DNA of 52,459 nucleotides from a bacterium (GCA_965233585.1 CBDDTI010000593.1:1-52459); one strand, 5' to 3'. Numbered from the stretch's first letter, positions 24,340 through 47,120 are shown. The notes: generated from the sequence alone by a model not told the origin. Numbers and translations: made by a program.

Positions 24340-25354
24340 TTATACAATTCTGTTTAACATGGGAAATTTTTTTAATTTAATTTTTGTCTTCATTTTCATT
24401 AGTTTATCATCCATTTTATCAAGTGCATTAATGTTTACGTAAAAAGGATTTTTAGCTAGTCTATTCAATCTGATTATTGGGTTCCTAAGTTTAAATTTTC
24501 TATCTCCTGCTTTTAACGCCAATTTCGATTTATTCAGTTTAACTGTGGGGGTCCTAAGCAAAAGGCTTGTATCTTCCGGTTTTAACCCCAATTTTGATTT
24601 ATTCACTTTAATTGTGGGGGTCCTAAGTTGAAGGTATGTATCTTCCGGTTTTAACCCCAATTTTGATTTATTCAGTTTAACTGTGGGGGTCCTAAGCAAA
24701 AGGCTTGTATCTTCCGGTTTTAACGCCAATTTTGATTTATTCAGTTTAACTGTGGGGGTCCTAAGCAAAAGGCTTGTATCTTCCGGTTTTAACCCCAATT
24801 TTGATTTATTCACTTTAATTGTGGGGGTCCTAAGTTGAAGGTATGTATCTTCCGGTTTTAACCCCAATTTTAATTTATTCAGTTTCACTGTGGGGGTCCT
24901 AAGCAAAAGGCTTGTATCTTCCGGTTTTAACCCCAATTTTGATTTACTCAGTTTAACTGTGGGGGTCCTAAGCAAAAGACTTGTATCTTCCGGTTTTAAC
25001 CCCAATTTTGATTTACTCAGTTTAATTGTGGGGGTCTTAAGCTTAAGGCTTCTATCTTCCGGTTTTAACCCCAATTTTAATTTATTCAGTTTAACTGTGG
25101 GGGTCCTAAGCAAAAGGCTTGTATCTTCCGGTTTTAACGCCAATTTTGATTTATTCAGTTTAACTATGGGGGTTCTAAGCTGAAGTTTTCCATCTTCCGG
25201 TTTTAACGCCAATTTTGATTTATTCAGTTTAATTGTGGGGAGTTTAAATTTTTGCATTAATCTTAATGGTTTTAATTTTGTCGTAATCATTTTTCTTTTT
25301 TTCTTTAGAATTATTTCATCATCATCATCTTCCTCGTTCCAGCGCCTTTTCCCT
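24340..25354 (-). CDS. Lys/Leu-rich 23-aa tandem-repeat region; probable exon 2 of the 26498 gene
   Basis: 11 copies of TPTVKLNKSKLGLKPEDTSLLLR (69-bp unit); ORF start at 25371 is TTG; joins upstream ORF in frame via GTAAG...AAG intron 25355-25419. Confidence 0.75.
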
Positions 25355-25419
25355 CTTAATGTGGGAGGCAAATAAAATGGCAGTTCTCTTAACTCAGTCG
25401 TCGGATTTAGTCTCCTTAC

Positions 25420-26498
25420 TTTCTCTCCTCATCTTCTTCTTCATCGTCTTCTCTATTTTTCCTTTTTCCTGTCTTAATTCTTTCAATCTGCCGTGTTCTT
25501 TGAATTCTTTCCCATTTATCTGGCGGTATTGGTCTAAATGATTTTTTTCTTTTTCTACGATTTGTTTTTAGAGTGGGTTGTTTTTTCCCCTCTCTAATTT
25601 GTTGATCAATTTCTTGTTGACCAAGTTTTCCCAGCTTTACTTGTGATTCCATTTCATCTAAAGCCGGCCTTTTTTCCGCCGCTCGATGTAATTCCCTCAT
25701 ATCCTCTCTATGACTTTGCAAGAAGGACGGAGTAAGTAAAACTTTTTTCTTCGGCTTTATTTGTTGTTGTTTTTGGCTTAGTTTGTCCAAATTCTCTCTG
25801 ACCATTCTTTGTTCCATAGCATTTAGCCGGTAGTTGTGTTTCTGATGCATGTGTCTGGCGAAAAATCCCGTCTTTTTAAAGTCGGCGCTGTTTTTGCAAA
25901 GAGGACATTTTAACGAAGAACTATGTAATATATCATTGATAGCCCAATTGATGAGAAATTTAGCTCGGTCTGTTTCTGTTTGAGACGAAGTCGCTTCCCT
26001 TGTTTCTTGCGGCAGTGACTGGGGTAAATCGGCGACGGGGAAAATTGCATTTTGCTCAGCAACGGGCGGTGCGGAAATAGAATTTGACCTTTGCCTCGTA
26101 ACACTGTGCTCGGCAACGGGCGGTGCGGAAATGGAATTTGTCCTTTGCCTCGTAAGGATCGGAGGAGGTGCATTGGCAATTGTTTCAATTTGTTCGTCAA
26201 ACGTCTGTTGAGGAAAATCTTCTGTTTGCATCTCATCATCGTTAACTGTAGCATACGTGTCATTGATTTCCCTATCCGGTGATGGTTGTTCATTTACCTC
26301 TCTCGGTTGAGATTTAAATGATTTTAATTGATGAAATCGTAGGGCTTTTTCTAAATAATTGGTCTCGGCGTTTAAGTCTTGTACTCTTTTTAACTGATCC
26401 GGGTCTTCTATGTTTTTTACAATGTTAAAATAAATTCCTTTGGGAATTAAAAACATTTCCGAAACGCCCTCCATGTTTTTTGATTTTATTTTCTTCAT
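25420..26498 (-). CDS. C2H2-zinc-finger-containing viral protein; probable exon 1 (spliced product 697 aa)
   Basis: 360-aa ORF with CPLC-x13-H-x4-H; stop lies inside the GTAAG donor; ATG overlaps the stop of the 117-aa gene (ATGA). Confidence 0.75.
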
Positions 26499-26848
26499 CT
26501 TGTCAAAAGTTGAGTAATTAGGGGAATTACGGCGCTGGCTATGGCTGATAGCACTCCGATTATTCCCCCCCTTTGCAACAGTTTTCTTCTCTTCCCGATA
26601 TCAGATTGTGAACGGGGGTGACTGGCCAGTTTTTTAAAATCTGACAAATGACTTTTTACCTTTTTCCTCAATCTCCCCCGCACCCCCCGCCTCAATTCAA
26701 GTTCGCCGTTCAATACGTAATGGATTATTTGACACAAAATATATATTCCCTTATCATCTAAATGTCTTATGAAATTGGCGCAATCGTGCCCTTTTAAGTG
26801 TTTTATCGCCGTAAAAAAGGAAACGGCTTTTTCTAATGATCTAGTCAT
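26495..26848 (-). CDS. Small Polinton virion protein with QxGG site and C-terminal amphipathic/hydrophobic helix
   Basis: 117 aa, basic, ends LLQRGG-IIGVLSAIASAVIPLITQLL; adjacent to the ATPase. Confidence 0.75.
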   Translation of the reverse strand: MTRSLEKAVSFFTAIKHLKGHDCANFIRHLDDKGIYILCQIIHYVLNGELELRRGVRGRLRKKVKSHLSDFKKLASHPRSQSDIGKRRKLLQRGGIIGVLSAIASAVIPLITQLLTR

Positions 26849-26882
26849 TTAACCGAATTCATTATGTTGTATATTTCAACTC

Positions 26883-27569
26883 TTACATAGATACGTGATA
26901 GGTTTTCATCGGATATTCGTGAGGGAAAATGTGACTTCTTAATCGCACCAAATTGTTTTGTCGCTGATGAAAATCAAGCAAGAGGTATCCGTAAGGACGA
27001 TTGTTGGTAGCCAAACGATAGGCTTCATTTAATAAAAAATTTCTCCCGGGAAACACTTGTTTCGACAGTTGAGATATGGAGCTTTGATCTCTGGGGTTAT
27101 TGAACAAAACCATATATTGGGTGTTGATGCTCAGTGTTCGAAGTTCATTTTTGGCATTGAATAAGTTTTGACACAGGAAAATGGTGAAACAATGATAGTG
27201 GTGAGTAAGGACCGTAAAAAAATGCTTTAAAACCGATCCTACTTCGTCTAAATAATCATCGAACACTACCAGTTTCGGAGCTTTTTTCGGCAACATTTCT
27301 AATATGTCTTTTATTTCCTCCACGGAGGAAGGTATCGATGCAAATTTAAAAAAGCGAGTTTCGTTTTGATCTTGATTCATCTGTTGGTCCATGTCCTCGT
27401 AAGCCTTCTGCCATTCTTTGTAAAATAGTATCATGTACTTTGGTACTTCGGCAAACATGATTTGGCGATTTTCCACTAGTCTCTTTAACCACGATGTTTT
27501 CCCGCTGGAAGTAGGTCCTACCGCCAACATGTTGGATGGCAGGAAAAATCGCACATCGAATCCGCCCAT
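26883..27569 (-). CDS. Genome-packaging ATPase (FtsK/A32-like)
   Basis: Walker A GPTSSGKT, Walker B LVVFDD, downstream HH, QNLF, RTLSIN and RPYGYLLLD motifs typical of Polinton ATPases. Confidence 0.93.
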   Translation of the reverse strand: MGGFDVRFFLPSNMLAVGPTSSGKTSWLKRLVENRQIMFAEVPKYMILFYKEWQKAYEDMDQQMNQDQNETRFFKFASIPSSVEEIKDILEMLPKKAPKLVVFDDYLDEVGSVLKHFFTVLTHHYHCFTIFLCQNLFNAKNELRTLSINTQYMVLFNNPRDQSSISQLSKQVFPGRNFLLNEAYRLATNNRPYGYLLLDFHQRQNNLVRLRSHIFPHEYPMKTYHVSM

Positions 27570-27623: not shown

Positions 27624-30600
27624 TTACGGCTTACATAGATGATGTCTTTTGTATCTCTTAATATACACACTGCCCAGGGCCAATGTACATTTGCCGCAAG
27701 GTAATATATATCTTTTTGTGTCCATAGAAGAGAGGGCAATTTTCCGCCGAAAAGTTGTGCTGATTCGATGGTTCTTTGATGCCAAATGGGTAAACGTTTT
27801 GTAGGTCAATTTGCTATCGATCAAACATTTTTCATAATCTTCGAAAGAAAGTTGATTTTGGATGCTCGTTCTTTTCAATCCTTTGCAAACTTTTTTTTGA
27901 GCTTCTTTTTTACTATTTAAATTTTTTATTTTCATGGCGTAACATTTCGGTCTTAATCCGATAAAATCGGTAATGGCCGACTGACCTTTCAGTTCGTCTT
28001 TAAAATAAAACAAATGATTAGCTCTGCTGTTGTTGTACAGTACGTGATTCTTATTGTACTTGGAAAAGTCGAACATGTGCTCCATTTCTTTCAGTTTATC
28101 GATCAAATTGCTGCACTTGACTTGAAACAAGAAACTATCCGTATCCGAGAAGCATAATTTTAAATTTTTTGCGCCAAATTGTTGCCGAAATTTATCGTAA
28201 GATCGAAACATGAATAATTTGGATAATTCTAAAATCGCAAATCCGGTAGGGGTGGGTTTATTCAGGGTGATGAAATCGGGCTTTTTCATCACCGCTACCA
28301 AATTTTCGTTGATGATCTTAAAGTTGGAAACGTGCTGTCCTAGGCACGCTTTTCGTAGACTTTTTTCATTATCACACAAAATAATGCTGGTGTAATTTCG
28401 TGCGTTTTCTGAAAAAATATCCATGATATCAATTGATCATTTTTTGTTTTAAAAAAAAGGAGGAAAACATAATTACCTATGAATTTCCCGAAAGTTGAGT
28501 TGGCAAAAAGTTTGAACAGCCGAAGTTCAAATTCTGTTTCTGCTTCCGATCTTAGTTTGGTGATTTTTGTAATGAAATTTTTCAGGAAATCTTTTTGGAT
28601 AAATTTTACCGCTCTCCTTATTTTTACCAATTTTAACCCTTTTTGAAGATAATACTGCAAATTGTCCAATAAAACCACATACTTCTTCCGCGGATAAAAT
28701 GTGGCTAAAAGTTTTTTGGAATTGTACTTCTTTCTTCGGTAATCTCGGTAGTTTTGCATTTTTAGAACCTGTCTGTTGAACGGAGATAAGTTTTTAAAAT
28801 CAATTTGTCCGTTGTAGGGAGCTAGTGGAAATTGATCATCTCGCTGATAAAAAAATGGGAGAAAAAAATTTAATTATATTTTTTTCTTTGATAAAACTGA
28901 GAATATCCTTTTTCTCTTTTATCATCATTACCTTGTGATATTTTTTGGGATAGATCATATCAACTTCAAAGGCGTAGCCTGTTTCTCCCTGCGTTGGAAT
29001 GTTCAAAATGTCTTCGGCCGTCCATGATTGGAGTTGTTTCTCCGACACCCACTCGAAATTTCCCACGGGTAGTTTAAACGTTTCACAACTTCCATATAAA
29101 TTATTAGCTAGAAATATGATGGAGGGGGGAAAAAAATCAGATCGAATTTTTCTTTCTGGCTATATTTTTTTACTTACCGTCAACATAAAGCAGATGATTC
29201 CCCGGTGTTTTAGGATCTTCGTTTCCCTTCGCTCGCCTGGTCGATATAAAGCTTTGCCCTCCTCGTATGCCTTTATTGAAAAACTGTTCCATGTCCGGAT
29301 CATGGAGCAAATCTAATGAACCAAATGGTTTTTCGGTTTCGTCCTTATTTTCAGTCTTTTCCTTTTCATAGTACATTTTCAGCATAATGTCGAAAGATAA
29401 ACCGGGTATGCCTATATAGAAAAAAATGTTTTTAAAATAAATGAACCAAATAAATTTTTCCATTTTTTTCAAAAATATCTAAACGTACCTAAGTAATAAA
29501 TCGGGTCCAATTTAAAATGATGTAATACCATTTCCCGATATTTGACGAAAACTTCTGCCAGCAAAATGACATCCAGTCCGCAGTATAACTTCATGTAATC
29601 CTCCATCGTTCGACATTGGAAGAATTTAAAGACTTTTTTCCCGTGTTGATAGTCTTCAACGGAAATCCCCGCGTCGTTTAACGTCGAGTGAAACTCTGCT
29701 CGAGATGGGAACGTGCGACTATTTTTAATATGCTCGAACGAGGAAAAAAATTCGTAAGGGTAAACGCCTTTTCGCTTTAATAATTTTACAGCGGGGGGTT
29801 TTTTACGGTGCTTCAGCTTTTGTAAGACCTCAAATTGGCGAAGAAGGGGGAAATTAAAATTGTCATCTTTACACAGGTCCGATACCAGAGCATCCAGACT
29901 CGAAGGGATGTGTTCCAAAGAATCTTTTATTTGAAATCGGCCGATGGAGAGCGTTCTAAATTTTTCCTGATTCCTGGCCATAACTTTGGCTTTAATTTTC
30001 AGTTTTTCCAGCAGCAAATTTATGTCGTATCTGAAATGATTGAGGGGAAACGAGTCATTGTCACAACATGTTGTGGACATGAAAATATTCTTACCCCTGA
30101 GCGTTATGAAAATACAGCGGCGTCAAGAAGGGTCCCTGTCTCTGAAGATTGCAAATAGCGTGTGCAGCTTCGACGATTTTCCCCGAAACATGATCGTGAT
30201 CTACCACTTTTCTATACCGGAAAGATCGGCTTTCAAATGGTTTTTCGCAAATGTGACAAGTTTCGGCCCGGTGGTAAGCGTCCCACTCTAGGGGGGAGGC
30301 TACTATTTGGCTTACTTTTCTAAATCTTTGTTTTCTTTCTTCTACCAATCGTTCGTAATCCGTTAACTTGTTCAGAAAACGCTCAACCGCGTCCTCCCCG
30401 CTGTAGGTTTCTTGGAAAAAAACGTCATTTTCCGAATCCACGAAACATATGGAATAAGCGCAAGGCTTATGCCGGCATTGTTCTACACTGGCTGACACAT
30501 CACATTGGCACGAAATTGGGTTCTTATTACATTTTTTACACTTCACCTTTTGGCCCTGATCGCCTTTTTCCATGAAACATTCGAAATCTGCGAATCCTAT

Positions 30601-31302
30601 CACCGGGGCTTTGAAAGCGTTCTTTTGATTTCGATAGTTTATGCTGTCCCCCTCGTTCGGGTAAACGATTCTTTGTTTATCGTTCTGACAATAACGCCGA
30701 TGAACGTTCTTTTTCCTCCTTGATCGAAATCGAAGCAGACACATTTCGCAGTAGTGGTTACTCACTCTTTTTTTGTTCGGCGAACAGCTGAAGTTTCTCA
30801 TGTTCAGGTAGGCGTTCAAGTTTTTGATGGTAAAAAAGTGGTACTGGTGTTGAATTTGACGCAAGGTAGAAATGGATTTCGTATTGATGTCGTGCGGATC
30901 AGCCCCGATGTACGAATGATCGTATTTCAGCATGAGCAAGTTTAAAATGTTTTTTGTCTTGTTTTTATCGTTGCTCCGGTTGGAAAACGTGTCCAATATA
31001 CTCACTTCGTTTTCGCTGTCGAACAGCACTCTAATGTTCAGTTTTAAATGTTTATTTTTTTGCACAAACTTGTTGATCTGCTTATACGGCAGGGGGAAAT
31101 TTAACCCGTCAAGATTAAAGCGATCTAAATATTCAGTGGGAATGTTTTTAAAATGAGTAATGTGCGCCGTTTGAAGGGGCCATAAATGACGAACGACGCA
31201 ATACAAAAAGTTTTTTTCATCGTACACAAAATTCCATTTCACACTTTTGCAATTCAATAATGTTTTGGAAATGATGATCGATTTGGAGTACGACGGCTTC
31301 AT
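27624..31302 (-). CDS. polB: Protein-primed family B DNA polymerase, 6 exons, 1103 aa, with vOTU-like and EndoVII/HNH regions
   Basis: Exons 31302-30095, 30030-29489, 29411-29178, 29107-28932, 28843-28477, 28408-27624 (3312 nt, in frame). Motifs: ExoI FADFE, EndoVII CHIC..DHDH..CN, ExoII FHNAQGYD, KGVYPY, ExoIII YCGLD, YVDANNLYG, KLFANSTFGK, FSDTDS, RPKCY. Confidence 0.93.
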
Positions 31303-31320
31303 GTTTCTCTGTTTCTCTCG

Positions 31321-31983
31321 TTACAATACGTTGGAAGAGTCGTACAACACTATATCACAATATTTAAGAGTCTGAAAACGCCAACCCGATCCCCTGGTCA
31401 ATAAGTCTTCCTCCCTTTTGGCAGCCCCCCTCAGCATTGACCTAATTCTATTCCTACGCTGTCTCTCGCTCTGATATCGATTGAACAACAGACCTTTTGA
31501 TCTTAGAGCCAACGTATCGTTATCAACGCTTTTATTTTTCTCTCCCGTTTCTTCCTGGCTCAGATCAGGGATCTCGTAATCGGCAAAAATGACTATGCTC
31601 ATCCTAAAAACGGTTCTGACCGCTGTTTGACTTCTGACCAAATTATTTATCGTGTTGACCGTTCCATTAGAGGAGCAAAAATTAGCAAGCGAGGTGTTAT
31701 TTTCTTCTAAAGACATTCGGTAGATGACGACTTTTTGAGAAATTGAGCTTCTCGAAGTAAAGGGGAGTAAAGATTGATGTTGAGGAGACCACATGTGCTC
31801 AATTAATTGGTCTTTATCTTGGAAAAAAAGGTCGCAAAATGGGCAATCTTTTTTGGAAGATGAGGATGGGGTGACGGCAATAATTTGCTGTTCATCGGAC
31901 GGATGTTTTTTTCTCAAATGTCTGTTTAAATTGTTTTTTCGAGAGAAGAAAATATCACACTTTTCACACTTGTAAATTTTCAT
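31321..31983 (-). CDS. Two C2H2 zinc fingers plus putative terminal-protein domain (normally the PolB N-terminus)
   Basis: CEKC...HLRKKH and CPFC...HMWSPQH; C-terminal RGSGW motif characteristic of the N-terminal region of Polinton pPolBs; first ATG at 31983 (32037 is GTG). Confidence 0.75.
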   Translation of the reverse strand: MKIYKCEKCDIFFSRKNNLNRHLRKKHPSDEQQIIAVTPSSSSKKDCPFCDLFFQDKDQLIEHMWSPQHQSLLPFTSRSSISQKVVIYRMSLEENNTSLANFCSSNGTVNTINNLVRSQTAVRTVFRMSIVIFADYEIPDLSQEETGEKNKSVDNDTLALRSKGLLFNRYQSERQRRNRIRSMLRGAAKREEDLLTRGSGWRFQTLKYCDIVLYDSSNVL

Positions 31984-32192
31984 CTCGTTATTACGACAGG
32001 AAAAAAAGGACGATAAACAATTTGATTTTTTTATCACGATGTTTATTTCGCTTGAGATGCGGTAACCGACTGAATAAAATTTCTCAGACGATGATGATGA
32101 TGTAGAATACGAGTGAGTGAGGGCAAGAAAAGAGGGGAAGGGGTTAGAACGAAGAAAAAATATATAACAAAGGAAGGAGGGGGTAGCACAAC

Positions 32193-33455
32193 TCAGGGCA
32201 AATCCATGATCGAATCTAAACCGCTAGCGATGTTCTTGAGGTCTGATAAGCGGTGCATCAACAGGTTTATTATAATATTCAACCTGGCTGTTGTGCGATC
32301 ATCCCTAACAAAACTTACTCCATCAGAAGGGAAAATTGAGGAAAGGCGACGTTGACATTGTTGAAATTGGTCGGATATGGCTCTAAGTTTCATTAAAGCC
32401 ATAAATTCCTTATGCCTGTCCAGCGGCAGCAAATTTTGCATTTGCATGGCTTGCTCCTGGGTAAAAAGGTAGGTATTTTCAAGGGTATTATGTCCAGTAG
32501 CATTCCGGGCTTGGTCAAGTCCCGCCCTCTTTAACTGGTACATGGTGGACAATTTGTACAGGGGCAAATAATTTGACACTTGCGAGGGGGGGACAGGAAC
32601 ATTGATGGAAGCAGTGGCGGCGGTACGAGGTAAGGGTTGATCAACGGGTTGACGTGTAAAGCTACTGGAGGGAACGGTATTGGTGGCGGTTGTCGGAGGA
32701 AAAGACATATTTTGAGGAGGAGAAGAAAACCGGGCAGTCAACGCTTGAAGAGGGTCGGGGGTGACAGGGGAAAAAGTCTGTTGGTTGGGTCTGATGGATA
32801 TTGATGGAGTAGGAGAGCATAAAGGTGTTCGATAATGCCACATGGACCTGGTGGCAGGAGATAAGCTCTGGGTCATAAGGGACAATGGTGAGGGTGACGA
32901 TGTTCGAAGTAAATGGCTTAAAATGGAATTATCTGAAGATTGTGATCGAAATAAAATATGGGATGATGATGATGATGGTAGTGGTGGTGGTGGTGGTGGT
33001 GGCGGAAGTGACGATGCGAGAGGACGTGATCTTTTAACGGTCAAATCAAGGGGATCCTTTTCTTCCTCGTCCGTCATCGAAATTTTCCTCTTTCCTTGCT
33101 CAGATGTGGTATTGATGGTAGTGGTCGATATCAAAGAAGATGGTGCTATGGTGGAAGGAAGCTGATGAAGGATAACACAGGGCTGAGGTCGAGAAATACG
33201 GCGAGGACGGGAGAGTTTCCTCTTCGATTTACCCTCATCATCCGCCGAATTGATGACGGGAGAGGTCGTTGGTGGAACGACCCTTTCCTCAGTTTGATTT
33301 TTTCGATTTCTGAGGATTCGGATTTTTAGTCCATCATCGGAAGCGGTGGTGCTGGAAAAAGTCGATGATGAAGCCCCTTCCGCATGAATATTCGCAGGAG
33401 TAACATCGGTGGTGGAGGTGGTGGTGGTGGTGGTTTGTTCTTGATGATCAGACAT
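32193..33455 (-). CDS. Ser/Thr/Pro-rich, largely disordered 420-aa protein with CtBP-type PLDLT motif
   Basis: Long intact ORF; PLDLT at 33039-33053; basic NLS-like patches; predicted 5'UTR intron 33464-33522 (GTAAGC...TTTTTAG). Confidence 0.8.
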   Translation of the reverse strand: MSDHQEQTTTTTTSTTDVTPANIHAEGASSSTFSSTTASDDGLKIRILRNRKNQTEERVVPPTTSPVINSADDEGKSKRKLSRPRRISRPQPCVILHQLPSTIAPSSLISTTTINTTSEQGKRKISMTDEEEKDPLDLTVKRSRPLASSLPPPPPPPPLPSSSSSHILFRSQSSDNSILSHLLRTSSPSPLSLMTQSLSPATRSMWHYRTPLCSPTPSISIRPNQQTFSPVTPDPLQALTARFSSPPQNMSFPPTTATNTVPSSSFTRQPVDQPLPRTAATASINVPVPPSQVSNYLPLYKLSTMYQLKRAGLDQARNATGHNTLENTYLFTQEQAMQMQNLLPLDRHKEFMALMKLRAISDQFQQCQRRLSSIFPSDGVSFVRDDRTTARLNIIINLLMHRLSDLKNIASGLDSIMDLP

Positions 33456-34235
33456 GATTTTTTCTAAAAAAATAATAATGTATAAAAAAATTTTCTCCGT
33501 AACACTTTTATTATTTGCTTACCTTTAAGTTTTTTTGGCTAAGTCCTCCCAAAAAAAATGAAAAAGTTTTTTTATTGTTGTATGTTATCCGGTTAAATGG
33601 AATCGAAGTAATGATGATAATAGGAAATCCATATTTGGTTATATAGTTTCCCCCCCAATTAACACTTGCCCCGCTTATTAATTTTAAAAAGCAAAAGAAA
33701 AAAATTCATAGGCGTAAGTAGGGGGAATAAAAAGAGACGGCTGTCTAGGGGAAAAATCAGGTCAATTAAATCACTTCCCTTCCCCTCGGGGCTTAAAGGT
33801 GCAAAGTACTTAAAGAACTTTCTGCACGCGCGCACACCCCCTTACGTGTTGGAAAATAAAAAAAGGAAATCGGCCTCCGCTTCACCATTGATATAGACGG
33901 CGGTATCGAAATTAATGATGGCCGGACAAATAATTGTGTCTCCTCCTTTTTTCCTTTTGTAAAAATAAAAAATGATGTTGGGGTGTTGAAGAAGCGGTTA
34001 ATTGGTTTTTATTCAAAAAGGTAACTAACGAGATGATGATGATGATGAGGGCGATCTTAATGAAAAAGCTAGCCTTCTCCCCTTTTCTTTAATTGGAATA
34101 AAGCCCGATGGAGGGGGAAGACATTGGAATACAAAAGAATTATCTTCTCCCCTCCATTGAGAAAATTTGAACATCGTTAAAAGGGGGTATGTGAATAATA
34201 ACAGGTGCGTTATGACCGCGGCTTAAAAAATAGAC

Positions 34236-34272
34236 TATAAAAAGTTGAGATTGTTTGTTAAAAATATCAGTT
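34236..34272 (+). promoter_or_regulatory. Canonical Pol II core promoter: TATA box + arthropod-type initiator
   Basis: TATAAAAA at 34236 and TCAGTT at 34267, ~70 nt upstream of ATG 34341. Confidence 0.6.
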
Positions 34273-34340
34273 CTGGGTTGACTTTCATCCTTTGAAGACA
34301 AACTTTATTATTTTTCCTCTATATAAGAAAGGAATAAACG

Positions 34341-35637
34341 ATGGGAAAGGCAAAGGGTGAAGCCGCCAAATCCGCCGCTGGTGACAAACATGTCAAAAAA
34401 GGCGGTACGGCGAAAAAGAAAGATCAGCAGAAGGAAAAGAAGGTGGAACAGTCAAAAAAAGAGTTACTCCCGAAAAAAGCGGGGCAAAAGCGGCAAAAAA
34501 ATGGAGGCGGTGATGAGGTCCTTAAGAAGAAGAGTCCTGTTAGCGCCTCCTCCTCGAAGAATCGTAACAAAGGACATTTCAAATTGATAAGGACAAAGAG
34601 AATGATTGACGACGACGACGACAAGATAAAGGAAAAGATGATTGATGACGAGGAGGAGTTGGAGGAGGAGGAGGTGAATCAGGAGGAGGAAGATGAAATG
34701 GCAGATTTCATCGATGACGACGAGGGTACCGATGACACGGAGTCCATAGATACTGTCGACGTTGATATGAAATCTGATACGACGGACGTGAATGATGAGG
34801 ATGAGTCGGAAGAAGAGGAAGAACCGGAAATTCAAACCAAAAAAGTAGCGGTTAAGGCTAACAAAAAAAAGGTCCATGATGCTGACGCGCCCCCTGCCAA
34901 AAAAAAAGCGGTTAAAAGGTATGCGGAGCCGGATCAAATTCTCTCCAAAATCGACATGATCAATTTACCCTTAAGTAAGCAAAAACAAATTTTTTCTGCC
35001 GACAATCAGTGGGAGATTGTAACGCCGGTAGCGACTGCAAGTATAGACTACGACCGTTGGCAAGAACAACACGGAAATCGGGAGGCCTACTTCTTCGCCG
35101 ACGATGGGGTAAGTGAATGAGGAAGTGATAAAAAAAGGAGATTACCAAATCAATAATAAGCCTTTTTTCCACTTGGCTCATCCGCTTATAGTACATCTAC
35201 CCTAATGGGACGACGATGAAGAAATTCATCGAAGCCCTCAGGAACAAAGAGGTAGATTTGGAAAACATCAGTCTTCCCTTCGTACCGATGAATAAGTCCG
35301 TCTCCACGAACCCCCTGATCCGGATGGGGATCACGGGGGTTCGCCACCTGCAGCGCGCCGGGGGGCTGGCCGTCTGGCCAGTGGTTTATCTCAGTCAGGT
35401 TCAGGTAAGGGTAAAAAAAAACGAAAGGTAAGACGTTGATGATGTTGAACTGACTATTTTTTTTTTCTTTCCCTTCTACAGTACAACGAGAACAACAAAA
35501 ATTACAATACGAAGACGATCAAGATAAATTTCCCCCTCTATAAATTGGACGCCATAACCGAAGGACTCTTTGAGCTTTGCACGGGATTGGGTTTTGACAT
35601 AAACTCCGCCTCCATCATCAACAAAATGAAAAAGTAA
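34341..35637 (+). CDS. Three-exon 378-aa protein with basic N-terminus, long acidic tract and globular C-terminal domain
   Basis: Exons 34341-35108, 35192-35404, 35482-35637 (1137 nt, in frame); introns GTAAGT...TATAG (83 nt) and GTAAGG...CTACAG (77 nt). Confidence 0.78.
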
Positions 35638-35851
35638 AAAGCGTCGTCCAACCCTTTTTTCCACCAGCGAATAACAAGATGTATTGTACATAGAATAGCA
35701 CCTGCACTTACCCGGCGATCGCCGGGGAAGCTCGTCCGCCGCCTTTTTTTCTTTTTCCTATTATTTTTTAATATAAATGCCATCGACCGTAAATAAGATA
35801 AGGAAAATACATTATAAATCGTCACAGTCGTCACACCTGCCATGTCTCTAT

Positions 35852-36412
35852 TTATTCCGGCACCGCTTTTAGCTTATCACACAATGATTTTATTAAATAT
35901 TGTACAATTTTTTCGTTATGGTTTAAATTTTGACGAGAGAAAAAGTTTGAAAAATATCGTGGATCGCAACTTGAATAAATGGTAACCATCATACAAAAGG
36001 CGGCCGTGTACCACCCGCAAAACAAGGAATTAAAATTCTGGACGGGATAGGTGAGCACGCGCCTTATCGTAACATTCTTCCGCCTTTTCTTCCACCTTTG
36101 CAATAAGTTCATTAAATGATGATTATGAGCGGGCGGAGGTAGAGCGTAACTGTCAAAATACCAAAGATTTTTCCCCTTGATGTAAATAGCGATAAAATGC
36201 CCGCCCGACCGATGAGAGGGGGATAGATTGACGATAAAACACTTCCCCCCATGATGAACGTTGAATAATTGCGGGGGGACGAGGTCTACGGAGAAAACCC
36301 CCGCAAAATGACGATGGTCTAATTGACGTAAGAATTTTTCCAAGACATCGTTTCTTAACCCCTCGTTGGTCACGACCGACTCGTTCCCCATGTTATGAAT
36401 CGGCGACCTCAT
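35852..36412 (-). CDS. Adenain-like cysteine maturation protease
   Basis: GVFSVD, IVNL, GGHF (His), YFDSY (Asp), Q..NSLFCG (Cys); start may be the second ATG at 36391. Confidence 0.93.
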   Translation of the reverse strand: MRSPIHNMGNESVVTNEGLRNDVLEKFLRQLDHRHFAGVFSVDLVPPQLFNVHHGGKCFIVNLSPSHRSGGHFIAIYIKGKNLWYFDSYALPPPAHNHHLMNLLQRWKKRRKNVTIRRVLTYPVQNFNSLFCGWYTAAFCMMVTIYSSCDPRYFSNFFSRQNLNHNEKIVQYLIKSLCDKLKAVPE

Positions 36413-37742
36413 CGGTTCTGATCACCTGACCTCCGTTATCAATTTTCAACCCGGAATTGAAAATGGAATAGGCCAGGAGATAAATAGGATGGGTTTTGGC
36501 TGTTTTGAAACCCAATTCGACGTCCAACTTCCCCTTTTCGTCCGGGTGGATATGATAACTATTGCAACGGTCGGGGGTGAAATCCGCCGTCAGAAAACAC
36601 CGACCCTTCTTAAAAGCCTCCATGCTTACGCTGCAAGTGTAGTTGGAAATGCCGTAGCCGATGCTGTCGTACATGTGTCGATACAAATCCAGGTAATTGT
36701 CGTTGTCAAAATCGGGCTGAAAAGCCTTCGGAAAGACGCATTGCCCATTTTTGATCACGTTAAAGTGATTTAAATCGAAATGTTGAAAGTTGAAGGGGTT
36801 TCTCGAGCTGCTCTGCGACAGGGCCTGGTTGTGAATCATGCACATAATGAGTTGTTTGGGGAGAATTTGAGAAGCCACGTTGGTGACCGTGTAAGTCGTC
36901 ACATTGGCCGGAATGACAAAAACCTTGAATTGCGTCATTTTGTAGGGTATGTAACACGGCTCCCGGCTCAATTTCAGCGTGAAAGCATCTCGCTGTTGAG
37001 CGGAAGGGAGAACTTTTCTCATTTTCAGCTTCAAATCCTTCAACTGGACGACATAGGTTTTCCCGACCTCGTTGTGCAGAATACCGAATTGGGGATGGGC
37101 TCTCACCAACTTTATCTTGATATCCACATTCGGTGGAAGATATTTATCGGTGTACATGATATCAGCCCCCAAGCGCGAGCAAAAATACACCTTTTTATGA
37201 TCCGTCAATAAATCTCGGCGAGCGGTCAAATTTGTATTACCAGTGGGATCGTTTTTTTCGATTTCCTCCGGTTCTTCGACGAAATAACCTTCGCTTTTTA
37301 ATTGGCATTTTTTGCTCTCCAAATCGTAAGACAACTCCGTCTGGATAAAATTTCTAAACGGATAGGCGTTGGCGGTGCTTTGATCGCAAACTTGCACGCC
37401 GTTCAGGTAAATTTCCACTTGGGAGAATAAGTTATAGGCAAAATTATTAGCCAGAAAAACTTTATGGTCGTCCTCCACATCTCCTGCGGCACCATCTTGC
37501 TTGACAATAAAATGTCCGATCAGTCTGGTTTGGTCCAAAATGAACGAACATTCCGCGTCGCGAGGGATCAGGAATTCAACGGGTCCCGCGTTGGTCACGC
37601 TGGTCACGCTATCGTAAATAACATCCGATCCCTTTTCTAAACTCACATCAACCCCCAGGGGCGAATGCAGATCAAGAGCCTGTTCGATAAGATCGTCTTG
37701 CTCGAAACCTAATCCCGCGATACCGCCCCTATTGTCGGACAT
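36393..37742 (-). CDS. Major capsid protein 1 (Polinton double-jelly-roll type)
   Basis: 449 aa; LFSQVEIYLNG, YPF, KYLPPNVDIKIKL, NPFNFQHFDL, DFTPD motifs typical of Polinton MCPs. Confidence 0.88.
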   Translation of the reverse strand: MSDNRGGIAGLGFEQDDLIEQALDLHSPLGVDVSLEKGSDVIYDSVTSVTNAGPVEFLIPRDAECSFILDQTRLIGHFIVKQDGAAGDVEDDHKVFLANNFAYNLFSQVEIYLNGVQVCDQSTANAYPFRNFIQTELSYDLESKKCQLKSEGYFVEEPEEIEKNDPTGNTNLTARRDLLTDHKKVYFCSRLGADIMYTDKYLPPNVDIKIKLVRAHPQFGILHNEVGKTYVVQLKDLKLKMRKVLPSAQQRDAFTLKLSREPCYIPYKMTQFKVFVIPANVTTYTVTNVASQILPKQLIMCMIHNQALSQSSSRNPFNFQHFDLNHFNVIKNGQCVFPKAFQPDFDNDNYLDLYRHMYDSIGYGISNYTCSVSMEAFKKGRCFLTADFTPDRCNSYHIHPDEKGKLDVELGFKTAKTHPIYLLAYSIFNSGLKIDNGGQVIRTDEVADS

Positions 37743-37861
37743 GATCGAGGAAGAGTAATTTTTTTATTTTTATTTTTAAAAGTTTATTTATTCAATATTT
37801 TTTCAACTGATACACCTTTGCCCTTAAATAGAGACATGCGGCTCGGGGCAGGGGAATGCGA

Positions 37862-39298
37862 TCAATAATATCTCTTTTGTACCTGACGGTCTTTACCGAT
37901 CAAAAGAAGGGCGTTGTACACGGCGTAAGAAAGCAAGGTATAATCCGATTGAGCCAACTTGCTAAAAGTCAAATCCAATGCAAGAGAACCGGATTCGGAG
38001 TTATGGTTGTGAAAAGAATGGCATTTGTCGGGCGTTAAATCGAAAACCATAAAAGTGTATCCTTTTTTGTAATTGTCAAGGGTGACTCGATTTCTGGTGT
38101 TGACATTACTTTGAAAATGGTCGTACATGTGCACGTAATCCCCATTGTCAAAATTGCAACGCATGATGCGCGGTAGCAGAGGTTTACCGTCCTTTTTCAG
38201 CATGACGGAAGAAAGGTTGGCATCTGAATAATAAAAGGGGGAATCGGTACATACATTCCTGCCTAACAGCCTGCTCCGGACCAGGGCAAAAACGATCTGC
38301 ACAGGCATTTTTCTGCCCGCGTTAATGAAATTGGCGCTAAAACTGAGAGAGCCGAAAGGGATGTTATAAAACTTTAGCTGCGTGTCCTTGTAAGGTATAA
38401 CACAGGGCGAATTTTTTTCGTTAAGTGAAACGTTGATCCTGTTGCGCACGCGTACGGTGGTTAGCGCCTTTCGCATCCGTAACTTTACATCTTGTAAACA
38501 AATGTTGTAACGGTCATAAGACGTGGATTTGCTTATTAGCCCAAACATGGGATTAAACCTCCGCAATTTTATATTGATTTCCACATTAGGGGGCAGATAC
38601 TTGTCGGAGTAGAATATATCGGCGGGAATGACCGTGCTAAAGTAGACCTTTTTTCCATTCATGATACGGTTGTGATTTTCTACTAATCGAGGGTCAGTCA
38701 AAGCCGTATCCAAGGTACGTTCGGAGACAGTCCCCGTAGCCGTATCGGTGGGTTCATTTCCATCCTCGTCCATCTCAACCTCCTCAGCAACGTCTTTAAA
38801 TACCAACTTAAACTCATTTTTCCTTTCGGCGGTGTAGTATCCTTCCGTTTTAAAAAGGTAATTGGAGACGGAAAAGGGGTAGGATAAAGTTACATCGATA
38901 TTGTGTTTGAACGGGTAGGAGACGGAAGCGCTGAGATCGCACACTTGAGTGCCGTTGAGATAAACCTCTATTTGTGAAAAGAGACAGGCCCCATAGTGAT
39001 TGGCTAGAGTAACCTCGTCTTTCTCATCTAAAAATTTCCCCTTGAGATCTTTGACCACAAAGTAGCCCTCCAATCTGCTTTGATTCAGCAAGAAATGACA
39101 CTCCGGATCGGGGGGGATATGAAATTCAACATCCCCCGTCTCCTCGATCGGTGAAACGCTGCTATAAATAACAGTACGACCGGATATTAAATCCACTTCT
39201 TGTTCCAAAGGCTTATGCAAGTCCAGACTCTCTCCTTTCAGCTCATTAAACTCCACATTCAGCCCTCCGATACCGCCGCGAGAGGTGGCGGAAGTCAT
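37862..39298 (-). CDS. Major capsid protein 2 (divergent paralogue)
   Basis: 478 aa; shares RGGI.GL, LDLH.PL, LFSQ.E.YLNG.QVCD.S, DKYLPPNV, D.TPD.C.S.H with MCP1; extra acidic insertion. Confidence 0.85.
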   Translation of the reverse strand: MTSATSRGGIGGLNVEFNELKGESLDLHKPLEQEVDLISGRTVIYSSVSPIEETGDVEFHIPPDPECHFLLNQSRLEGYFVVKDLKGKFLDEKDEVTLANHYGACLFSQIEVYLNGTQVCDLSASVSYPFKHNIDVTLSYPFSVSNYLFKTEGYYTAERKNEFKLVFKDVAEEVEMDEDGNEPTDTATGTVSERTLDTALTDPRLVENHNRIMNGKKVYFSTVIPADIFYSDKYLPPNVEINIKLRRFNPMFGLISKSTSYDRYNICLQDVKLRMRKALTTVRVRNRINVSLNEKNSPCVIPYKDTQLKFYNIPFGSLSFSANFINAGRKMPVQIVFALVRSRLLGRNVCTDSPFYYSDANLSSVMLKKDGKPLLPRIMRCNFDNGDYVHMYDHFQSNVNTRNRVTLDNYKKGYTFMVFDLTPDKCHSFHNHNSESGSLALDLTFSKLAQSDYTLLSYAVYNALLLIGKDRQVQKRYY

Positions 39299-39914
39299 GA
39301 TGATAGAAGCGGCGGTTAACCGAGATGACTACACGATAAGTAATATTAAAATCAGCTGCGTCATTGCTATAAAAACTGCGAATCTTCTACTCTTAAATAG
39401 CGATGATAAGAATGTGAAATATTTTGGAAATTTTATCGTCGTTAGAAGAAACAACTTTGTTTACAGCATTTTCAGAAAAAGAAAAAAATCCATCAGAGAG
39501 ACGAATAAGGAAAGGAACGGCGGCGACGCGGTCTTGTATCATATCAACATCACCAAAATTCCGTCGCCTGACCAAATTGCGTCTTCCATCGACAATTTGA
39601 AAAACATCATCCAAAACGAGTATTTTGTGATGACCAAGATAATCAACAACGTAACGTGCACCTACGATACCAAATTATCGTCCATCCCGCTGTTAGATTT
39701 GATAGAGGAATTGAAGGAGAAAATACCGTCGGTGAAGCGGGTGAGATTTAATCCGGAAAGATTTCCGGGAATGTTTATTTCATTTCCGGACAACACCTTG
39801 TTAATTTTTTCTTCCGGCAAAATGGTTGTAATCGGCGGTAGAAGCGAGCGGGTCAATCTTCATAGCATCGGTGAAATGGTCAAATTTTTAAAAATGATCC
39901 AAGACCGGAAATAA
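39297..39914 (+). CDS. TATA-binding-protein-like factor
   Basis: RFNPERFPGMFI...TLLIFSSGKMVVIGGRS matches TBP repeat consensus (YEPELFPGLIY...LLIFVSGKVVLTGAK); ISNI and INNV match the NxV/I strand opening each repeat; first ATG 39297. Confidence 0.87.
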   Translation: MMIEAAVNRDDYTISNIKISCVIAIKTANLLLLNSDDKNVKYFGNFIVVRRNNFVYSIFRKRKKSIRETNKERNGGDAVLYHINITKIPSPDQIASSIDNLKNIIQNEYFVMTKIINNVTCTYDTKLSSIPLLDLIEELKEKIPSVKRVRFNPERFPGMFISFPDNTLLIFSSGKMVVIGGRSERVNLHSIGEMVKFLKMIQDRK

Positions 39915-39981
39915 AACACATATATAAATGACGATCGTTAATGAGATAAAATTGCAGTAAGACATCATCCTCGGGACACGC

Positions 39982-40704
39982 ATGTATTTTCAAAACTATT
40001 GCCATCATTGTCCACATCCAAGGCCGGTGAACGATGTGAGTAACGGCTTTCACGTTTGTCAAGATTGCGGAAAAGTATTGGGACCAGTGTACGCGGAATC
40101 GGCAATCGCATGTCATACGCCCCGATTAGAAAGTCCCAATCAAAACTCATTCGAAAAAGACCTGTTGGAGCGAATATGTGACAAATGCTACATCAACGAT
40201 GCGGAATTAATTCGTGTCATAAACCATCAATGGTCGGACCTTAAACGCCAGAAGAAAAAAAACCTTCACAACGTGGAAGCTTTGATGCTTGTCGCCGTTT
40301 TTTTAGCCTTGGTAAAAAGTAAAGTGCCGAGACCTGTGCAACACTTGTGCCAACTGACCAGCATCGAGCCCGAAAAAGTGTGGCCCCTTCTAAACCCGCA
40401 AGAATTTTATTTCCAACCCAGTCTGATGTGCGAATACTTTCTTAAAGGGCTGAACCTGTCTTTCAAAGATGTTGAATCGATAAGAAAAAGAGTCAAATTT
40501 TACGAAAGAAAGATCGTGTTTTCGCCGCAAACAATTATAGCCGCCTGCGCTTACACCTTTCTAAGAGAAAATAAAATGACTTATACTTTATCAGGGAGAG
40601 AAACCCCAATTACTCGCCTGACCTTCGTGGGATTGGCCAAAGAATTAGGTATCAGTCCTATGGCGCTGAATAGATGCGTGAAAAGATTAACCGCCGTAGA
40701 GTAA
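39982..40704 (+). CDS. TFIIB-like factor
   Basis: N-terminal Zn ribbon CPH...GFHVCQDCGKVL; cyclin-repeat motifs VAVFLALVKSKVPR and SPQTIIAACAY; C-terminal LAKELGISPMALNRCVKRL helix-turn-helix. Confidence 0.85.
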   Translation: MYFQNYCHHCPHPRPVNDVSNGFHVCQDCGKVLGPVYAESAIACHTPRLESPNQNSFEKDLLERICDKCYINDAELIRVINHQWSDLKRQKKKNLHNVEALMLVAVFLALVKSKVPRPVQHLCQLTSIEPEKVWPLLNPQEFYFQPSLMCEYFLKGLNLSFKDVESIRKRVKFYERKIVFSPQTIIAACAYTFLRENKMTYTLSGRETPITRLTFVGLAKELGISPMALNRCVKRLTAVE

Positions 40705-40749
40705 CTCGAACACAGGAAGCAGGACGAAAAAAAGAAAAAAAAGGTCGTA

Positions 40750-41169
40750 ATGAGATATCATCGAGGGCCCGCGGTACAGCAAGGCGCGGGATTAGGTTCT
40801 ATTTTTAGCGGCTTAATTCGAACTCTGGCGCCGGTGGCCAAAGGCGCCGTAAAATCAATCGGTCGAATTGTAAAAAGTGACGGTGCCAAATCGGTGGGAC
40901 GGTATTTAAAAAAGGAGGCCACTAGGGCAGCCGTTGACACGGCCTTAGAAGCGTTGGAAGGTAGACCCGTTGGAAAAGCCGCCAAAAATCGATTAAAGAC
41001 CGCTACCAAAAACATACTCTTGAGCGGGAGACAGGCCGTCGCGGCTAATTCTAGCAAACGGCGAAAAGTGAAACGAAAAAATGTAAAATCATCGGCTGTC
41101 AAAAGGAGCCGACTAACGCGATCGAGGCCGTTGTTTGAAGATTACGAGGATGACGACGAGGATTACTAA
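40750..41169 (+). CDS. Small basic virion protein with QxGxG site and amphipathic helix (adenovirus pVI-like role inferred)
   Basis: QQGAGLGSIFSGLIRTLAP motif typical of Polintons; KRRKVKRK basic patch; acidic tail. Confidence 0.8.
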   Translation: MRYHRGPAVQQGAGLGSIFSGLIRTLAPVAKGAVKSIGRIVKSDGAKSVGRYLKKEATRAAVDTALEALEGRPVGKAAKNRLKTATKNILLSGRQAVAANSSKRRKVKRKNVKSSAVKRSRLTRSRPLFEDYEDDDEDY

Positions 41170-43890: not shown

Positions 43891-44190
43891 TTATTGATGT
43901 TGTTTTTTTACAAACGCTAAAAGATTTTTAAATTGCACAGTAAGCGAAACAAAAATAAGGAACGCGATAGCAGTTAAAAAGAAACAAGAACAACAACCGC
44001 AAAAATAGATAACATTTATAATGTCCCATTTATCACGTTTATCTATTTTGACCGTATCATGGGTATTACTATCGTATGGTGGGGGAGCGAGAAAAATATC
44101 ATTATTGCTCACTGGCATTAAATCTCGTTCAACCAGATTTCCAAAATTATAAAGTGAATTAGGGGAAGAGTAAGGAATCGGAGAAGGCAT
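43891..44190 (-). CDS. Small single-pass membrane protein, paralogue A (PPxY motif)
   Basis: 99 aa; APPPYD; Cys cluster CGCCSC then hydrophobic segment; ends AFVKKQHQ. Confidence 0.7.
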   Translation of the reverse strand: MPSPIPYSSPNSLYNFGNLVERDLMPVSNNDIFLAPPPYDSNTHDTVKIDKRDKWDIINVIYFCGCCSCFFLTAIAFLIFVSLTVQFKNLLAFVKKQHQ

Positions 44191-44207
44191 CTTAAAGTTT
44201 TTTGCCT

Positions 44208-44525
44208 TTAATTTTGATGTTGTTTTTTTACAAAAGCAAAAAGTTGATACACTTCAAAAAAAATTAGAGCAAAAGTAATCAGCATGGTAACGCTTAAAAA
44301 AAACCATGAGCAACAATTGCAAATAAGGGCAGATTCTATAATTTCCGCTTTATCCTTTTGAGTCATTTTGATTATATTATCGTTGGCCAATCGTTTGTTT
44401 CGACGTTCTTTTATGTCAAAATAAAGCTTCTCCAATTCATCCGATCTGATCAATTCTTCTCGACGTTGCTGTTTCTTAAAATTATAAGGTAAATCAGAGA
44501 AGGAGTTGGGAGTCGGGGAAGACAT
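44208..44525 (-). CDS. Small single-pass membrane protein, paralogue B
   Basis: 105 aa; MSSPTPNS vs MPSPIPYS; CNCCSWFFL then hydrophobic segment; ends AFVKKQHQN. Confidence 0.7.
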   Translation of the reverse strand: MSSPTPNSFSDLPYNFKKQQRREELIRSDELEKLYFDIKERRNKRLANDNIIKMTQKDKAEIIESALICNCCSWFFLSVTMLITFALIFFEVYQLFAFVKKQHQN

Positions 44526-46896: not shown

Positions 46897-47120
46897 GCTG
46901 CGGGAAGGCTGTATTGAGGTCTTTTTAGATCATTTCAGGCCGATTCAGTCTCAAACGGACTGCTTGCAGGCTGCAGGAAGGTGCCATTCAGTCTACGTGC
47001 AGCCTGCAAGCAGACTGTTTTGAGGTCTTTTTAGATCATTTAAGGCCGATTCAGTCTCAAACGGTCTACGCGTAGACCGATGGCGCCTATTTTTAGATCC
47101 GTAGAGGTCGCTTTGTATAC
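46897..47120 (-). repeat. Right terminal inverted repeat (224 bp)
   Basis: Reverse complement of 23438-23661. Confidence 0.95.

Follow-up and report, generated by a model that had tools for sequence, protein, structure and literature searches.

A short box with the constant core T[T/G]TAAG stands before both major capsid protein (MCP) genes of a Maverick/Polinton element on contig CBDDTI010000593.1 of assembly GCA_965233585.1 (positions 1 to 52459; this whole stretch of 52,459 nucleotides (nt) is called C593 or the window below). We find the box to be real and conserved; besides the capsid genes it precedes the genes for the packaging ATPase and the small protein p117, but not that for the putative protease. 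We consider it likely that the box is a promoter element. The fuller reading, in which it is the core-promoter element of the virion-gene units (one for MCP2, one for MCP1 and probably the protease, one for the packaging ATPase, and one for p117 and p360) and is proposed to be read by a TATA-binding protein (TBP) encoded in the element, strikes us as evenly balanced, and we regard it as plausible, at somewhat less than an even chance, that the element's own TBP is the reader. The original prediction for this DNA had described a shared TATT-type element before both capsid genes and the protease. Its presence before the capsid genes was borne out and it is kept in three clades of sister elements, but the part that is conserved is T[T/G]TAAGRR and not TATT. 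MCP1 and MCP2 stay in the gene set, the ATPase gene belongs to it by way of another site than the one proposed, the protease drops out, and p117 is added.

The window is one contig of a 12-Mb assembly of 747 contigs; like ~45 other small contigs, it looks eukaryotic and abounds in a single family of mobile elements. The element in it is 23.7 kb long and bounded by perfect 224-nt inverted repeats (23438 to 23661 and 46897 to 47120; 100% complementary). The repeats, an rve integrase with a chromodomain, polB motifs, a capsid fold, and an A32-type ATPase mark it as a Maverick/Polinton. It is one of animal type, because the MCP1 model (AlphaFold; pLDDT 88) matches the capsid proteins of iridovirus, PBCV-1, Sputnik, and mavirus (E ~1e-16), its distant sequence relatives are "F54H12.2-like" records from lancelet, wasp, acorn worm, and sea urchin, and the nearest protein-atlas clusters come for the most part from arthropods and echinoderms. 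Using the element proteins as tblastn queries, we found full-length sister copies on ~45 contigs of the same assembly, which fall into three clades. Clade A consists of C593, a 99% identical fragment, and C93. Clade B comprises 13 contigs with two MCPs (~71% identity to C593 for MCP1 and ~49% for MCP2), and clade C comprises ~21 contigs with a single MCP that is ~53% identical to that of C593. In every copy the TBP gene stands head to head with a capsid gene and is followed by a TFIIB-like gene, and all 41 PF00352 matches in the assembly lie inside these elements.

All three sequences named in the original prediction were found at the minus-strand coordinates given for them. The box before MCP2 (CTATTTAAG; 39392 to 39400, minus strand; core TTTAAG at 39397 to 39392) lies within the opposite-strand TBP open reading frame (ORF), as proposed, and 93 nt separate its G from the ATG (predicted, ~95 nt). 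The MCP2 and TBP start codons share CATG at 39296 to 39299, an overlap or abutment kept in three clades; each promoter must therefore sit within the coding sequence of the other gene. The box before MCP1 (also CTATTTAAG; 37823 to 37831, minus strand) is 80 nt from the ATG, exactly the spacing proposed, in the strictly noncoding MCP2-MCP1 intergenic spacer. Two exact copies of CTATGTAAG had gone unnoticed: one 60 nt before the ATPase ATG (27630 to 27638, minus strand), overlapping the last polB codons, and one 33 nt before the p117 ATG (26882 to 26890, minus strand), its TAA being the ATPase stop codon. The third sequence, CTATTTAT before the protease (36480 to 36487, minus strand), is present but was rejected as a member of the set: it is coding sequence, within the H-P-I-Y-L-L codons of MCP1, and clades B and C differ from it in their DNA. 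Likewise, the looser TATTAAG ~92 nt before the ATPase gene is kept only in the near-identical copy. TATAAAT (39163) and TATTAAA (39185), assigned earlier to the region upstream of TBP, do occur, but both are inside the MCP2 coding sequence.

Alignment of every copy defined the constant part of the box as T[T/G]TAAG followed by purines (T[T/G]TAAGRR), usually after C-T/C-A/T. The "TA" prefix varies, and CCATTTAAG, CTTTTTAAG, GAATGTAAG, and CACGTAAG all occupy the place. The MCP2 box takes the form CTATTTAAG, TTATTTAAG, or, in C58, TTATGTAAG, with TATTTAAG or TATGTAAG preserved in 15 of 15 copies; the sole change in C58 is T to G, within the T/G position, and turns a TBP residue from Asn to His. 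Before MCP1 we found CTATTTAAG in clade A, CTTTTTAAG in clade B, and AATTTAAG in C98. The ATPase box reads CTATGTAAG, CCATGTAAG, GAATGTAAG, TTATTTAAG, or TTATTTAAAAG, and the p117 box reads CTATGTAAG, CCATTTAAG, CACGTAAG, or CTATTTAAG. A box variant precedes the gene in every copy (p117, 43/43; ATPase, 42/42; MCP1, 41/41; MCP2, 15/15), counted with a pattern that was widened post hoc to admit TATTAAAAG, TATTTAAAAG, and ACGTAAG. All MCP2, ATPase, and p117 copies have TTAAG or GTAAG, as do the MCP1 copies of clades A and B.

The box also persists where its surroundings do not. Between C593 and C93 the MCP1 box has stayed identical amid a spacer that has diverged around it, and between clades the MCP2-MCP1 spacer cannot be aligned, with the box kept in each. 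Clades A and B share ATGTAAG before the ATPase gene, where it codes for Cys-Lys. The clade C boxes of the ATPase gene and p117 are at new positions, in spacers: an intergenic TTTATTTAAG or TTTATTTAAAAG ahead of the ATPase gene and, likewise intergenic, CTATTTAAG with 26 nt to the p117 ATG. The virion-gene boxes depart from the canonical TATAWAWR in that position 2 is T or G, not A; to judge from its letters, the box could be taken as a TATA box (TATAAGRR or TATAAAAG) with T or G in place of A as the second base.

Within the window taken alone, CTATTTAAG occurs three times (0.58 expected; equaled in 3 of 100 shuffles), and the four occurrences of TATTTAAG have no significance (3.62 expected). 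The pattern CTATKTAAG is found six times (1.02 expected; 0 of 100 shuffles), and four of these six matches belong to the element, where each occupies the minus strand 33 to 93 nt before the starts of MCP2, MCP1, the ATPase gene, and p117. This pattern was picked post hoc, after inspection, and an independent test was therefore needed. We took the 150 nt before every ORF of at least 90 aa in eight representative elements (158 regions) and scored each word against its frequency within the elements, with no motif chosen beforehand. TATTTAAG ranked first of 14,282 8-mers (14 of 158 regions versus 1.67 expected; p = 2e-9; all eight elements), TAAGAA ranked first of 3,810 6-mers, and TTAAGA was also a top 6-mer. 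By clade, TATTTAAG ranked 5 of 4,753 (A), 15 of 6,607 (B), and 9 of 5,776 (C), and TAAGAA, TTAAGA, and TTTAAG were the first three 6-mers of clade B; taken alone, these per-clade ranks would fail multiple-test correction except for TAAGAA in clade B.

The enrichment is confined largely to the virion genes. Both strands of the eight elements hold 22 TATTTAAG sites. The 27 starts of MCP1, MCP2, the ATPase gene, and p117 have 11 of these sites within 150 nt upstream in sense orientation (0.29 expected), and the remaining 131 ORFs have 3. The more permissive WTKTAAG has 21 of its 150 sites before virion-gene starts (2.05 expected). In strictly noncoding DNA, the 1,251 nt before the four virion genes contain T[TG]TAAG 10 times in sense and never in antisense, and the 8,490 nt before all other ORFs contain it 10 times in sense and 9 times in antisense, which makes it ~7 times denser before the virion genes.

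Other genes of the element have promoters of a different kind, and the early/late-type contrast drawn in the original prediction was found again in the sequence as a noncanonical box on the virion genes versus TATAAA with a CAGT initiator on the TFIIB-like and p259 genes. The TFIIB-like promoter (39921 to 39958, plus strand) consists of TATATAAA and then CAGT, whose A is 33 nt after the first T of TATAAA, a layout shared by C93 and clade B. Across copies, 27 of 28 distinct upstream sequences of this gene have TATAAA or TATAAG, and in clades A and B the A of CAGT is 32 to 33 nt after the first T (TATA-to-initiator spacings were counted by hand). TATAAGA and TATAAAA of the TFIIB-like promoters differ from T[T/G]TAAGRR at the second base only. 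The p259 gene, the gene at 34341 in the original prediction, does carry TATAAAA and TCAGTT (34236 to 34273, plus strand; TATAAAAAG, with the A of TCAGTT 33 nt downstream), and sister copies keep them, with TATAAAA in both C93 and C58. A second box, CTATATAAG, occupies 34319 to 34327 (plus strand), 14 to 22 nt upstream of the p259 start codon; C93 has it as well. At least two more families of Mavericks in the same assembly lack TBP and TFIIB genes (C446, C380, C690, C744, C581, C315, and others), and their ATPase genes have CTATATAAATG plus TCAGTT at the same 33-nt spacing in two related copies and TTCAGTT alone in two others. Because the TFIIB-like, p259, and TBP-less Maverick promoters are alike, TATA plus a CAGT initiator seems to be the host-type promoter grammar, which we take to be arthropod-like.

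The TBP-like gene beside MCP2 (39297 to 39914, plus strand; 205 aa) was also identified correctly. Its product has a Pfam PF00352 match to the second repeat (44.1 bits versus a cutoff of 22.9), and the family profile matches solved TBPs in the PDB (E = 2.8e-25). In its structural model (pLDDT 90.5), ~200 columns align to TBP cores (TM 0.52 to 0.75), and PDB ranks 1 to 44 are all TBPs. Judged by its profile and its modeled saddle fold, it is a genuine two-repeat TBP. It is paired with the TFIIB-like gene (39982 to 40704, plus strand; 240 aa), whose product is predicted to combine a zinc ribbon with a cyclin-like core and a helix-turn-helix at its C terminus. The TFIIB-like profile matches human TFIIB over ribbon and core (E = 6.6e-10). 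The zinc ribbon is matched in six of six members (best E, 4.2e-8; the C593 copy scores 19.7 bits, under the cutoff of 29), and the Pfam TFIIB repeat is matched in one of six. A predicted complex of the two proteins scored 0.27 against a mark of 0.32, a score that counts neither for nor against their pairing.

To compare DNA-contacting residues, we aligned the C593 TBP and 54 metagenomic relatives (n = 55) with four named archaeal TBPs. The family keeps Phe46 (54/55), Phe59, Phe156, and Phe171 (54 or 55/55), which we take to be the DNA-kinking residues, and Asn16 (53/55) and Asn118 (55/55), presumably the central contacts. In contrast, the Val/Ile minor-groove contacts for A/T recognition that are a trait of the TBP family are replaced in 53 to 55 of the 55 proteins. 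Position 18 is Lys (54/55), position 120 is Thr (53/55), and position 160 is Phe (55/55), each being Val or Ile in the four archaeal TBPs; position 167 is Thr or Ser (55/55) and Val in the archaeal four. Positions 160 and 167 presumably correspond to yeast I194 and V203, a placement made in part from the FPG proline (Pro191) in HMMER alignments to archaeal TBPs. Several Asgard and Bathyarchaeia TBPs (loci L012 to L024) read FPG[MIL]F, with a Phe equivalent to yeast I194F.

These positions matter in light of a yeast altered-specificity mutant. According to the accessible part of the source (PMC1636458), TBPm3 (I194F, V203T, L205V) binds TGTA as well as TATA, its mutated residues face the second base pair, the C-terminal repeat contacts the 5' half of the box, and A to G at the second base pair abolishes specific binding by wild-type TBP. 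Of the three positions altered in TBPm3, two carry Phe and Thr/Ser, respectively, in all 55 TBPs of the family. A box that varies at base 2 (TGTAAG/TTTAAG), together with a TBP changed at two of the three TBPm3 residues, is the strongest argument that the element TBP reads the box. The likeness has limits: TBPm3 is a laboratory mutant that still binds TATA, L205V is absent here (Leu is kept), and the element TBP, unlike TBPm3, also replaces two Val of the N-I-V motifs, by Lys18 and Thr120.

These data suggest the following scheme. Host TBP/TFIID should read the TATAAA plus CAGT (33 nt) of the TFIIB-like and p259 genes, so that host machinery would first make the TFIIB-like protein, and TBP from an unspecified promoter. 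The element TBP would then bind the T[T/G]TAAG boxes, with the Phe and Thr/Ser that replace cellular Ile and Val in its C-terminal repeat facing the second base pair, and TBP and the TFIIB-like protein would recruit host RNA polymerase II to the virion genes. The virion genes are presumably late genes, and initiation would fall ~30 nt downstream of the box. We tentatively go one step further, to a private, orthogonal polymerase II initiation pair, in which a TBP retuned by the two substitutions that it shares with TBPm3 and a shortened TFIIB would read T[T/G]TAAG boxes unusable by host TBP. The virion genes would then stay silent until the element factors arise from the host-type TATA plus initiator promoters.

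The distances from box to gene bear on this scheme. From the end of TAAG to the start codon we counted 26 to 33 nt for p117, 34 to 75 nt for the ATPase gene, 38 to 97 nt for MCP1, and 79 to 93 nt for MCP2. The smallest distance from the first T of the box to a start codon is 33 nt (p117, clade C), the same distance as that from TATA to initiator in the canonical promoters. We saw no clear conservation of an initiator behind the box: most MCP2 copies and the MCP1 copy of C593 have CA at +21, and some other copies have it at +29 to +32, not clearly above chance, and CAGT is absent at the canonical 33-nt spacing. In the p117-p360 region (25416 to 26848, minus strand), the 354 nt of the p117 ORF contain a single internal ATG, against 5.0 to 8.2 for this length at the densities found in five other genes. 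The p117 stop codon overlaps the start of p360, and a large ORF directly follows p117 in every clade; in clades B and C p117 is likewise ATG depleted and followed by an ORF of 281 to 383 aa. This arrangement suggests that p117 and p360 may share a bicistronic mRNA translated by leaky scanning, and an ATG-poor p117 is what would be expected if a very short leader lets ribosomes pass to p360.

Several results weigh against the promoter reading or against the element TBP as reader. The single capsid gene of clade C reads TATTAAAAG, without TAAG, at the homologous place in the TBP ORF and is the one real exception. The MCP2 box doubles as TBP codons for Leu-Asn, and in clades A and B the ATPase box encodes Cys-Lys near the polB C terminus and the p117 box contains the ATPase stop codon. 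In a synonymous-site comparison, codons were identical anyway in 20 of 68 identically translated columns (three lineages), which makes two more such columns unremarkable, and Leu and Asn codons are often kept; this comparison cannot split DNA from protein constraint, and the case therefore rests on the noncoding boxes. With one mismatch allowed, CTATKTAAG shows no excess in C593 (25 versus 25.9 expected), our own expectation-maximization motif finder returned A-rich tracts only across all eight elements, and the copies are related, so that counts are not independent. A canonical TATAAA also stands 42 nt upstream of the C593 ATPase gene, and no box was found before the protease gene or the penton candidate p535. 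A start ~30 nt downstream would leave leaders of 0 to 7 nt for p117 and ~10 nt for the clade C ATPase gene and clade B MCP1, which would be unusually short for an animal-type host. As to the protein, the mapping onto yeast residues is in part presumed, the third TBPm3 change is absent, and Phe at the equivalent of position 160 also occurs in some archaeal TBPs.

The near-leaderless p117 that such a downstream start would entail argues for an alternative that we consider rather unlikely, an initiator-type late promoter in which transcription starts in or next to TAAG and the reader is not the element TBP but a host factor, the C2H2 zinc-finger protein of the element, or polymerase II contacts. 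Late promoters of baculoviruses and nudiviruses have the form (A/G/T)TAAG, start inside TAAG, and are served by a virus-encoded polymerase (LEF-4, LEF-8, LEF-9, P47). The boxes resemble them in their pentamer core, as the invariant [T/G]TAAG fits DTAAG, in their contrast with TATA plus CAGT, the form of baculovirus early promoters, and in a probably arthropod-like host grammar. A start at the box would moreover give ordinary leaders of 26 to 97 nt to all four genes, and the lack of CAGT 33 nt after the boxes fits such a start; TAAG late promoters are mentioned in the accessible part of PMC4893493. The four-subunit RNA polymerase that baculovirus TAAG needs has no family match among the 24 element ORFs in Pfam, though, and a start at TAAG would leave the conserved TBP and TFIIB pair without a role, the 33-nt minimum distance unexplained, and the clade C capsid gene, with TATTAAAAG, without its TAAG. 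We see it as unlikely, too, that the box is an ordinary weak TATA variant read by host TBP/TFIID while the element TBP and TFIIB serve elsewhere (general takeover, competition with host factors, or canonical TATA boxes). Cellular TBP tolerates AT-rich TATA variants to some degree, the element TBP keeps the four Phe and both Asn of the DNA-binding surface, and EBV BcRF1 binds TATA and TATT alike in vitro (PMC4893493, in the part accessible). Yet TGTAAG recurs although A to G at position 2 kills wild-type TBP binding (PMC1636458, same proviso), the box is restricted to virion genes with TATAAA on TFIIB and p259, and four Val/Ile contacts are replaced in 53 to 55 of the 55 TBPs.

That the box has no function at all, and is a product of AT-rich spacers, stop codons (TAA plus G), Leu-Asn, Leu-Arg, and Cys-Lys codons, GTAAG donors, and shared ancestry, we hold to be very unlikely. 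The absence of a significant TATTTAAG excess in the window alone is what this account would expect, as are the boxes in coding sequence or over stop codons, the occurrence of GTAAGA as intron donor of the split polB, and a synonymous-site comparison that could not separate DNA-level from protein-level constraint. It does not sit well with the ~7-fold noncoding density before virion genes, in sense only, with the survival of the box in unalignable spacers, with its emergence as the top word when no motif was chosen beforehand, or with the new intergenic boxes of clade C for the ATPase gene and p117. It is still harder to see the box as a 3'-end signal (polyadenylation or termination) of the upstream same-strand gene, and we give this account next to no weight. 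Three of the four boxes do follow or overlap an upstream stop codon (MCP2 to MCP1, polB to ATPase, and ATPase to p117), but upstream of the MCP2 box no gene runs on the same strand, TBP and TFIIB being oppositely oriented, and the box is not AATAAA-like, a separate AATAAA being present downstream of the MCP1 box.

If the element TBP is the reader, the closest parallel is the late genes of herpesviruses, which use a TATT box, a viral reader with the TBP fold, and host polymerase II (PMC4893493, in the portion accessible). In both systems a one-base departure from TATA marks the virion genes and canonical TATA the earlier ones, and a virus-encoded TBP-fold protein is the reader, or here the proposed reader, for host polymerase II; many of the boxes here read TATTTAA. 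Unlike in the herpesvirus box, the hallmark T at position 4 of TATT(T/A)AA is not constant here. Herpesvirus TATT boxes lie ~30 nt before the start site of the late gene. The factor is a Pfam-detectable TBP homologue, in contrast to herpesvirus proteins that are ~10% identical to TBP, its partner is a TFIIB homologue rather than a six-protein viral complex, and the carrier is a 24-kb Maverick known here from sequence alone. The protein falls outside the ORF24/BcRF1/UL87 family: it is a canonical PF00352 member, cellular TBPs fill PDB ranks 1 to 44, and no herpesvirus protein came up in our searches.

Pairs of viral TBP-like and TFIIB-like proteins that act on virus-specific promoters are described for African swine fever virus (ASFV; B263R/C315R) and for poxvirus VITF-3 (PMC7458399 and PMC12917281, as far as accessible). 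The element resembles nucleocytoplasmic large DNA viruses in having such a pair, but theirs serve a viral polymerase in the cytoplasm, whereas the 24-kb element has none; its TBP/TFIIB pair would therefore have to redirect the host enzyme. Within the wider Maverick group, Starrett et al. (2021) placed a "TBP" gene label on the map of a MELD virus with an adintovirus-like PolB (PMC8502044). In the accessible part of that paper the precedent is a label in the Figure 5 legend, with no mention of a TFIIB partner, a promoter motif, or an analysis of residues. Apart from this label, we found no paper, supplements excluded, that ties Polintons/Mavericks to TFIIB or to a TBP-read promoter.

No promoter grammar is so far known for Mavericks/Polintons, elements that pass from silent genomic resident to virus production; the promoter motifs that our searches turned up all belong to virophages and polinton-like viruses using late promoters borrowed from giant viruses. 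If the box is read by the element TBP/TFIIB and rejected by host TBP, it would provide a compact two-gene switch between regulatory and virion genes. It would then also follow that a natural TBP can evolve altered TATA specificity via the residues found by yeast genetics, as a natural counterpart of the engineered altered-specificity TBP/TATA system. Such a switch would be a second, independent invention of the herpesvirus "viral preinitiation complex" strategy, made in a virus lineage thought ancestral to adenoviruses and giant viruses, and a further case of temporal control by DNA viruses without their own polymerase. Two proteins and 8 bp of DNA would be enough to test this reading; TATAAGAG, TTTAAGAG, TGTAAGAG, and TCTAAGAG form a probe set.

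The genes downstream of the boxes are the following. MCP2 (37862 to 39298, minus strand; 478 aa) is a paralogous major capsid protein, 36.5% identical to MCP1 and also aligned in A3 and A7, and MCP1 (36393 to 37742, minus strand; 449 aa) is a double jelly-roll major capsid protein. Clades A and B thus have two tandem double jelly-roll paralogues (36393 to 39298 in C593), and clade C has one; two major capsid genes are unusual for a Maverick and may point to a heteromeric capsid. The A32-type packaging ATPase gene (26883 to 27569, minus strand) is conserved in 46 copies, with Pfam matches to Pox_A32 and ATPase_2 that are both below the curated cutoffs. p117 (26495 to 26848, minus strand) is a small protein with a C-terminal hydrophobic segment, and its overlap with p360 has the form ATGA. 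The putative protease (35852 to 36412, minus strand) has no library match, leaving its identity as a protease unconfirmed by any library. Among the 24 ORFs of the element compared with Pfam are also the integrase, with its rve and chromodomain matches, a C2H2 zinc-finger ORF, a 139-aa protein that is Gly/Ala-rich and then basic, and the 535-aa penton candidate p535.

At least four ORF-exons make up the split polB gene on the minus strand between 27624 and 31302 (30091 to 31302, 29469 to 30080, 28340 to 28759, and 27624 to 28424), and its GTAAGA-type intron donors are kept across clades. The polymerase motifs KLFANSTFGKF and SDTDS (motifs B and C) lie in the 139-aa and 266-aa ORFs at 28340 to 28759 and 27624 to 28424; these ORFs are therefore polB exons and not separate genes. 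If the "penton" and "139-aa" genes of the original prediction, before which it had seen no box, were those at 27624 to 28759, they are exons of polB.

Relatives of the element proteins were found in ENA/Logan assemblies (~110 for MCP and ~95 for TBP, as proteins only). Searches with TBP or MCP alignments found no relatives in IMG/VR, a search with the MCP alignment found none among JGI metagenome contigs, and a TBP search of GTDB genomes returned archaeal TBPs only. For the stretch 31001 to 41000 of the window, the sequencing runs listed included no RNA run; four runs from a single study contain it, as contigs of unstated kind. The bin that holds the window is scored as 92% complete and 2% contaminated and contains hundreds of small eukaryote-like contigs, ~45 of them with Mavericks; two small contigs, C64 and C577, carry actin fragments with introns. 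Marker-gene contamination scores are blind to the eukaryote-like contigs in this bin.

Two further observations concern other ORFs of the element. A 316-aa ORF at 24340 to 25290 (minus strand), which adjoins the left inverted repeat, consists of ten 69-nt tandem repeats (23-aa units) and has no counterpart in the sister copies. Two adjacent paralogous ORFs at 43891 to 44525 (minus strand), of 99 and 105 aa and with 33% identity, both have a hydrophobic segment at the C terminus that ends in FVKKQHQ; outside C593, this pair was found only in contig C435.

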